Part shown: positions 24,503 through 24,835 of the stretch, in pieces
Numbering within the stretch: position 1 is the first letter of the stretch
Layout of the letters: the number at the start of each line of letters is the position of its first letter
Virus record (IMG/VR): IMGVR_UViG_2541047936_000001
Length of the DNA stretch: 26,422 bases
Source: a virus
Lineage: Duplodnaviria > Heunggongvirae > Uroviricota > Caudoviricetes
Strand: one strand, 5' to 3'
Translations under genes and position numbers: made by a program
The notes under the pieces: model-generated
What the model was told of the DNA's origin: nothing
Database searches by the model: none
What the model saw: the letters and a program-made list of their open reading frames with translations, nothing else

Positions 24503-24514
24503 GGGCGGCGACCT
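24503..24514. other. cosN cohesive-end site GGGCGGCGACCT (lambda-type)
   Basis: ...TCCGACAGGTTACG|GGGCGGCGACCTCGCGGGTTTTCGCTATTTATGAAAATTTTCCGG matches recalled lambda right-end/left-end junction. Confidence 0.7.
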
Positions 24515-24544
24515 CGCGGGTTTTCGCTATTTATGAAAATTTTC

Positions 24545-24660
24545 CGGGAACCATGTCCGGTTTCTCTTCAAGTTAACTATATGAAAAATATAAAAACAGG
24601 TCTTCTGTGAACCGGACATGCACAAAAAATAGATATGTAAACCGGACATGACCGGTTTTG
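24545..24660. other. cosB-like region with three copies of the 11-mer AACCGGACATG (24552-24562 inverted; 24610-24620; 24640-24650)
   Basis: Repeats read directly; expected position between cosN and nu1. Confidence 0.5.
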
Positions 24661-24697
24661 TTGTGATTGTGAGGTGAGAGTTTTTGCGAGGTGAGGA

Positions 24698-24835
24698 GTG
24701 GCTACGCAGACTGAAGTTGCCAGGCATTTAAGTCTGACCGATCGCCAGCTTCGCAGATTGCAGAAATTGCCGGGTAGCCAGGTAACACAGTGTTATGACA
24801 GCCCGCCGGTTCAGGCGGGCTTTTTTGTGGGGTGA
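24698..24835 (+). pseudogene. 5' remnant of terminase small-subunit gene (nu1-like, 45 codons)
   Basis: GTG start ~190 bp after cosN; ATQTEVARHLSLTDRQLRRLQKLPG resembles the Nu1 N-terminal HTH; reading ends inside a terminator hairpin. Confidence 0.4.
24801..24826 (+). terminator. Rho-independent terminator (GCCCGCC-GGTTCAG-GGCGGGC + T6) just upstream of stf
   Basis: Read directly. Confidence 0.6.

Follow-up and report, generated by a model that had tools for sequence, protein, structure and literature searches.

The DNA analysed here, referred to as the window (26,422 nucleotides, virus record IMGVR_UViG_2541047936_000001), is on its sequence the left and central part of a lambda-like prophage in an Escherichia coli chromosome, located at a tRNA-Ser gene (serU) beside mtfA, in which the cos site has been kept and about 20.4 kb with the terminase, head and tail genes have been deleted. 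The interpretation that we favour, with a probability of about 0.9, is that one illegitimate-recombination event deleted 20,367 bp from a serU lambdoid prophage, and that the remnant reflects recent neutral or mildly beneficial decay and not an adapted system. This is ordinary prophage decay, of the kind known from DLP12 and Qin in E. coli K-12; the phenomenon is well known, and this specific joint is new to the collections searched.

Locus, gene content and extent of the deletion

The element has the attributes of a defective lambdoid prophage. Indeed, (i) att repeats bound it at a tRNA gene, the attR-side repeat (79 bp, 91% identical to window 920-997) lying at positions 15895-15973 of the source-scaffold region (L016), (ii) the lambdoid order of int, recombination, immunity, replication, Q, lysis and cos is present and colinear with the annotated MEI003 prophage, and (iii) virion-essential genes have been lost, from the truncated TerS gene through J and lom (20,367 bp), int being disrupted by an IS as well. 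The matching prophages of MEI003 and RM14723 lie at tRNA-Ser beside mtfA. Over window 3188-24779 (21.6 kb) the sequence follows, in the same order and with 99.8% identity (32 mismatches and one real indel), the half of the MEI003 prophage that carries the early, regulatory and lysis genes, and this colinear comparison revealed no morphogenesis genes in that interval. Judging by ORF length, the remnant appears to have kept intact its DicA/DicC-type immunity region, Q, holin, lysozyme and Rz. The remnant measures about 29.8 kb with the IS included, and its intact relatives about 49 kb.

Two local differences from MEI003 were recorded in this backbone. Half of the mismatches (16 of 32) fall within about 120 bp (20671-20791) in the gap between the SASA esterase and holin genes, a cluster that points to a short patch of mosaic recombination, the rest of the backbone being 99.9% identical. 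An extra A at 15609 shifts the frame of a DUF968 gene (15032-16082) and divides it into two ORFs.

An exact-protein look-up with Stf retrieved read-level contigs and the source scaffold, KE702336.1 of assembly GCA_000461215.1, which is 100% identical to window 14838-26422, joint included, and continues beyond the window with a tail-fibre fragment, a gap of 1,860 N, an nleH-like ORF, nleF, attR and zinT. About 4.4 kb separate the window end from attR. The gap (L016 11737-13596) starts 1.3 kb past the window end, at a place where relatives carry nleB2 and an nleC fragment, and is much too short to hold 20 kb of genes. Morphogenesis genes relocated elsewhere in the same prophage, which would speak against a simple deletion, were found neither in the colinear interval 3188-24779 nor in the visible sequence between the window end and attR (the gap of 1,860 N apart).

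A first interpretation made from the letters of the window only, hereafter the sequence-only reading, had described a cargo-carrying remnant, and the gene content fits that description: a PerC/Pch-type regulator, a SASA esterase and tRNAs are encoded in the window, and nleH and nleF lie downstream. The PerC-family regulator (104 aa, 23675-23989; Pfam PerC, E-value 4e-44) is encoded between the Rz genes and cos and resembles the Pch regulators of attaching-and-effacing E. coli; this cargo gene has been retained. A cluster of three tRNA genes follows Q (17351-17600), namely Met (CAT) according to ARAGORN, Arg (TCG) and Arg (TCT); the MEI003 equivalent of the CAT tRNA is a tRNA-Ile in RefSeq, presumably with a lysidine-modified CAT anticodon.

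The integrase gene carries a second lesion, an insertion of an IS3-family element (Table 1) that looks like IS629. Removal of the IS together with one copy of the target duplication restores one open frame, with a longest open stretch of 356 codons, for an integrase of about 343 aa. The same sequence-only reading had called the remnant non-inducible, a conclusion that the deletion does not warrant. The deletion blocks virion production, not induction, and the step that is probably impaired is excision, by the IS in int and not by the deletion.

The extent of the loss was established by alignment with intact relatives. With a query of 25 kb, many E. coli prophages were hit at 98-99.8% identity, and all of these alignments broke off at window 24779. 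Compared with RM14723, the window lacks 20,367 bp that begin at nu1 codon 27 and extend 2 nt beyond the stop codon of lom, a length counted on one strand from the last retained left base to the first retained right base. The left arm is 99.1% and the right arm (24775-26422) 99.9% identical to RM14723, and the left arm (24300-24775) is 100% identical to an intact prophage of strain 2015C-3163 with full TerS, TerL and portal genes. In MEI003 and RM14723 the order after nu1 is TerL, head-tail joining, portal, S49 protease, decoration, major capsid, FI, tail genes, sodC, J, lom and stf; the remnant has lost 21 complete genes, TerL through J, plus sodC and lom, as well as nu1 codons 27-169. The large internal deletion that had been proposed is thus supported by arms 99-100% identical to complete prophages, and the alignment with complete lambdoid genomes, which had been suggested as a check, places its junction, the real boundary of the feature, at 24775/24776.

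In a three-way alignment, a single base (T, 24775) is common to both parents, which argues for illegitimate and not homologous recombination. Terminase cutting at cos was also considered as the cause of the deletion and was rejected, since cosN and cosB are both retained intact. A 31-mer across the joint (GCAGAAATTGCCGGGTAGCCAGGTAACACAG) had no hits in GTDB species-representative genomes, JGI metagenomes or IMG/VR, the exact joint was absent from 5,426 complete E. coli genomes, and the INPHARED phage collection gave matches mainly to the stf arm.

Table 1. Features of the prophage remnant in window coordinates, with strand
Feature	Position	Strand	Details
tRNA-Ser (CGA), integration site, attL side	892..981	+	tRNA call
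Prophage tyrosine integrase gene, IS-interrupted	1009..3372	-	
IS3-family IS, 1,310 bp	1878..3187	+	Terminal inverted repeats TGAACCGCCCCGGG; 3-bp GTC duplication at 1875-1877 and 3188-3190
cosQ heptamer GGGTCCT	24473..24479	+	Aligns with lambda; labelled cosQ in Asadulghani 2009, Fig S8 (PMC2669165)
cosN, 12-nt cohesive end GGGCGGCGACCT	24503..24514	+	12/12 identical to lambda bp 1-12
R3-like small-terminase binding box AACCGGACATG (putative)	24552..24562	-	Exact copy; cos positions 50-60
A/T-rich R3-R2 spacer	24563..24609	.	Partly aligns with lambda IHF site I1
R2-like box AACCGGACATG (putative)	24610..24620	+	Exact copy; cos positions 108-118; inverted relative to R3-like box
R1-like box (putative), palindromic	24640..24657	.	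Exact + copy (24640-24650) overlapping a 1-mismatch - copy (24647-24657)
Native nu1 5' end, 26 codons, GTG start	24698..24775	+	100% identical to the intact gene for WP_000235436.1
Deletion joint	24775..24776	.	T at 24775 assignable to either parent (1 bp microhomology)
lom-stf intergenic region	24776..24837	+	Starts 2 nt past the lom stop of relatives; aligns to lambda after the lom stop
Intrinsic terminator hairpin (strong, predicted), then T run	24800..24821		Within the lom-stf spacer
stf side tail fibre, 437 aa, intact	24838..26151	+	Prophage tail-fibre N-terminal domain, collagen-like repeats, Phage_fiber_C
89-aa ORF, tail-fibre C-terminal domain	26153..26422	+	As in intact relatives

The cos site, the nu1 fragment and the passage into stf

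The cos site is of the lambda type, and its cosN had rightly been described as intact. Indeed, the identity with lambda extends beyond the cohesive end to 45 of 45 bases from 24503 (lambda bp 1-45), the 200 bp upstream of cosN are 92% identical to the lambda right end, and the cohesive-end sequence is found once in the window; the first base that departs from a lambda-type cosB is 24548. [quoted passage not shown] The three cosB repeats of the sequence-only reading do exist as three exact copies of the box, with the amendment that one is inverted, as in the lambda R3/R2 pair. When one mismatch or fewer was allowed, four matches were found against 0.37 expected, a number reached in none of 100 shuffles.

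The spacing of the boxes is also close to that of lambda, whose CGTTTCC cores are found at about 53 (+), 114 (-) and 155 (+), with the nu1 start at +191: the R1-like box occupies cos positions 138-155, the downstream ORF starts at +196 and the boxes stand at nearly the same distances. In contrast, the sequence of the box differs from the lambda core, the R1-like site is palindromic, unlike its lambda counterpart, and the R3-R2 interval, the place of I1 in lambda, is without a clear IHF consensus. Indeed, no match to the IHF consensus WATCAANNNNTTR with one mismatch or fewer was detected in 24563-24609, and the sole such match lies between the R2-like and R1-like boxes (24623-24635).

The GTG-started ORF that follows cosB (24698-24835) does have the 45 codons that had been assigned to a truncated nu1, although only codons 1-26 belong to the terminase small subunit; the other 19 are an out-of-context read-through of the lom-stf intergenic region and its terminator. 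The intact TerS (WP_000235436.1, 169 aa) matches Pfam Phage_Nu1 (PF07471, E-value 1e-18) over residues 49-150; nothing of this region is left in the 45-aa ORF, which has no Pfam match, and an exact-protein look-up of the fused ORF returned no record. By descent, as shown by its 100% identity to the 5' end of the gene for WP_000235436.1, the fragment belongs to the Nu1 family, whose members are full-length domain proteins of about 170-180 aa; the window holds a piece of such a gene and not a member protein. For annotation purposes, the 45-codon ORF is best described as a pseudogene of the terminase small subunit with intergenic sequence fused to it, and the prophage as a defective one.

The frame had been thought to end inside the terminator. 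It instead passes through the hairpin, and its stop codon (TGA, 24833-24835) lies 6 nt after the T run. The terminator stem (GCCCGCCGGTTCAGGCGGGC) differs from that of lambda at about 19,600-19,625 (GCCCGCCGGAACCGGTGGGC) and still folds as a hairpin, and the spacer around the terminator and the stf start are nearly identical to lambda (reference for the spacer alignment: lambda lom end, 19585). The statement that stf begins 3 bp further on was accurate: the stop codon ends at 24835 and the ATG of stf is at 24838. The stf gene and the following 89-aa ORF are intact and 99.9% identical to RM14723.

A search for a sigma-70-like promoter between cos and stf found none, from which we infer that stf and the genes downstream would be reached by Q-antiterminated late transcripts. 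Such Q-dependent late transcription would continue across the lysis genes, cos and the nu1 stub into stf, now only about 3.5 kb past the lysis genes.

Packaging type and alternative explanations

The cos/Nu1 type of the window and its relatives is, as judged from sequence comparison, that of prophages Sp4 and Sp14 of O157:H7 Sakai, in which the Nu1 protein (MATQTEVARHLSLTDRQLRRLQKLPGAPISNKRG...), cosQ, cosN and the start of cosB are the same (Fig S8, PMC2669165). In contrast, the TerS of the intact relative shares about 30% identity with each of lambda Nu1 and N15 gp1, almost entirely in the C-terminal part, and its DNA-binding N-terminus differs from that of lambda. A packaging specificity of the N15/Monarch type was rejected, given that no R boxes are shared and that the TerS identity of about 30% is confined to the C-terminal part; no meaningful match to the intact TerS came out of a PDB sequence search. 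The box AACCGGACATG and the matching TerS N-terminus (type of 24552-24657) may thus represent a further lambda-like packaging specificity, different from those of lambda and N15.

With nu1 truncated and the morphogenesis genes gone, the element would be unable to make terminase or virions, and the only terminase for which its cos would still be a valid substrate is one of the Sp4/Sp14 specificity, provided in trans. Such an enzyme could nick cos and begin packaging to the right, through stf and the effector genes into host DNA. It is conceivable, if unlikely, that the remnant is a helper-dependent, satellite-like element, which has kept cos, regulation, lysis, stf and effector cargo and is packaged and moved by a resident or superinfecting lambdoid phage of the same terminase specificity, or that its orphan cos is a decoy that wastes the packaging of an invader. 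Its cos is indeed complete and 100% identical to that of intact prophages. Moreover, Sp4, which has the same cos/Nu1 type, was found packaged despite a nu1 disrupted by ISEc8, which the authors credit to the Sp14 terminase acting on an identical cos (Asadulghani et al. 2009, PMC2669165), and packaging that begins at a prophage cos leads to dead-end particles, unless these are rescued by recombination, and lowers phage yield (Feiss et al., PMC4669245). With the same low probability, the remnant may not be inert, a phage of the Sp4/Sp14 type either mobilising stf and the nle cargo together with adjacent host DNA, through recombination with this helper, or losing yield to the decoy. Were this the case, the recurrence of independent deletions that keep cos and tail-fibre genes would reflect selection and not chance.

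Several observations weigh against a helper-dependent element or a decoy. The window does not contain the dedicated gene set that defines cos-type phage satellites or PICIs as small elements of their own; it is a truncated copy of complete-phage sequence, without satellite-specific genes, and the 99.8% colinearity of 3188-24779 with an ordinary complete phage leaves neither time for nor sign of adaptation. Lambda heads require a minimum of about 37-38 kb for packaging, and efficient transfer of the remnant as a unit is unlikely because int is broken by the IS and a length of about 30 kb would fall below this head-filling minimum.

The reads of the source genome also bear on this point. Logan contigs of SRR958738 (24518-26336) and SRR958739 (24518-26289) cross the joint at 100% identity, start exactly at 24518 and are unbranched through 24775. 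With k = 31, the value we take Logan to use, 24518 is the start of the first k-mer that contains base 24548. This start point indicates that the source genome probably holds one or more further cos sites of the lambda type, with another cosB, and the unbranched course from 24548 to 24775 suggests that it has no second copy of this cosB and nu1 5' end, hence no cognate terminase gene or helper. Simple decay of a complete prophage remains the preferred interpretation. An intact cos of the Sp4/Sp14 type could still interact with related phages, which bears on gene exchange among defective prophages; on exchange within that pool, the present case offers nothing beyond what has already been described.

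A recombination between two prophages, the cos-nu1 part of one being joined to the lom-stf part of another, would make the joint the trace of a chromosomal rearrangement. Both arms are indeed multi-copy sequences (each arm has a median of 3 places per genome, a junction-spanning query up to 21), and the right arm is 96.8% identical to MEI003, against 99.8% for the left arm. This origin is nevertheless very improbable, as in RM14723 and 14EC001 both arms lie in one prophage, with 99% identity or more and 20,365-20,367 bp apart, and as the outer flanks (mtfA and tRNA-Ser on one side; nleF, attR and zinT on the other) are those of a single locus in the intact relatives. Least credible of all is an assembly or chimeric-read artefact, for which the scaffold-level assembly, the N gap 1.3 kb downstream and the repeated prophage sequence on both sides could be invoked, since a k-mer graph cannot join two sides that share 1 bp without joint-spanning reads and since the independently built contigs of two runs cross the joint.

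Comparison with intact relatives and similar remnants

The intact prophages of RM14723, 14EC001 and MEI003 share with the window the att site, flanks, cos, stf and effector cargo, and differ from it in that they keep the 20.4-kb block from nu1 to lom and have an int without IS (that of MEI003 being frameshifted instead). Prophage Sp4 is likewise nu1-defective with cos kept, but there the lesion is the ISEc8 insertion and the morphogenesis genes are retained, whereas here those genes have been deleted outright. With a deletion at 1-bp homology and an IS in int, the present element provides a cleanly mapped example of decay for the effector-carrying lambdoid prophages of pathogenic E. coli.

With a joined-arm query, a spacing of about 1 kb or less between cosN and the stf 5' region was found in no more than a few of the 5,426 complete genomes, as a result of several independent events. 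In NCTC9040 and 1332KP, a lambda-type nu1 breaks off at codon 16, where the final 9 nt of lom take over; noh-stf fusions are carried by E300010, PEC41 and G4/9; and in AR_0369, which came from the first junction search and whose arms are too distant for the joined-arm query, a truncated nu1 is fused to an internal part of lom. The NCTC9040 nu1-to-lom joint (L001 6420-6445, in a DLP12-type prophage) is 11 nt from the right breakpoint of the window. A breakpoint hotspot at the 3' end of lom was considered and is not significant, given that only three joints are informative, that the search was biased towards them and that AR_0369 breaks inside lom. Strain Z1323CEC0019 (NZ_CP148401.1) shows quite another form of decay, a heavily scrambled prophage region in which fragments of terminase A, tail assembly T, Rz, a Rha regulator, stf and portal genes are interleaved and point both ways.

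The closest parallels in layout are found in E. coli K-12, where DLP12 has the order ylcI, cos, nohD, aaaD', tfaD and Qin the order ynfO, cos, nohA, stfQ, tfaQ. Both have the arrangement of the window, namely lysis genes, a gene of the ylcI/ynfO family, cos, a Nu1 homologue and tail-fibre genes, with the head-tail block gone. Their deletions are independent ones: the noh genes are full length or nearly so, whereas nu1 of the window retains only 26 codons, and on the right the deletion ends within terminase A/tfa in DLP12 and within stf in Qin, whereas stf of the window is untouched. DLP12 and Qin differ from the window, finally, in their cosB/Nu1 specificity type and in their integration site.
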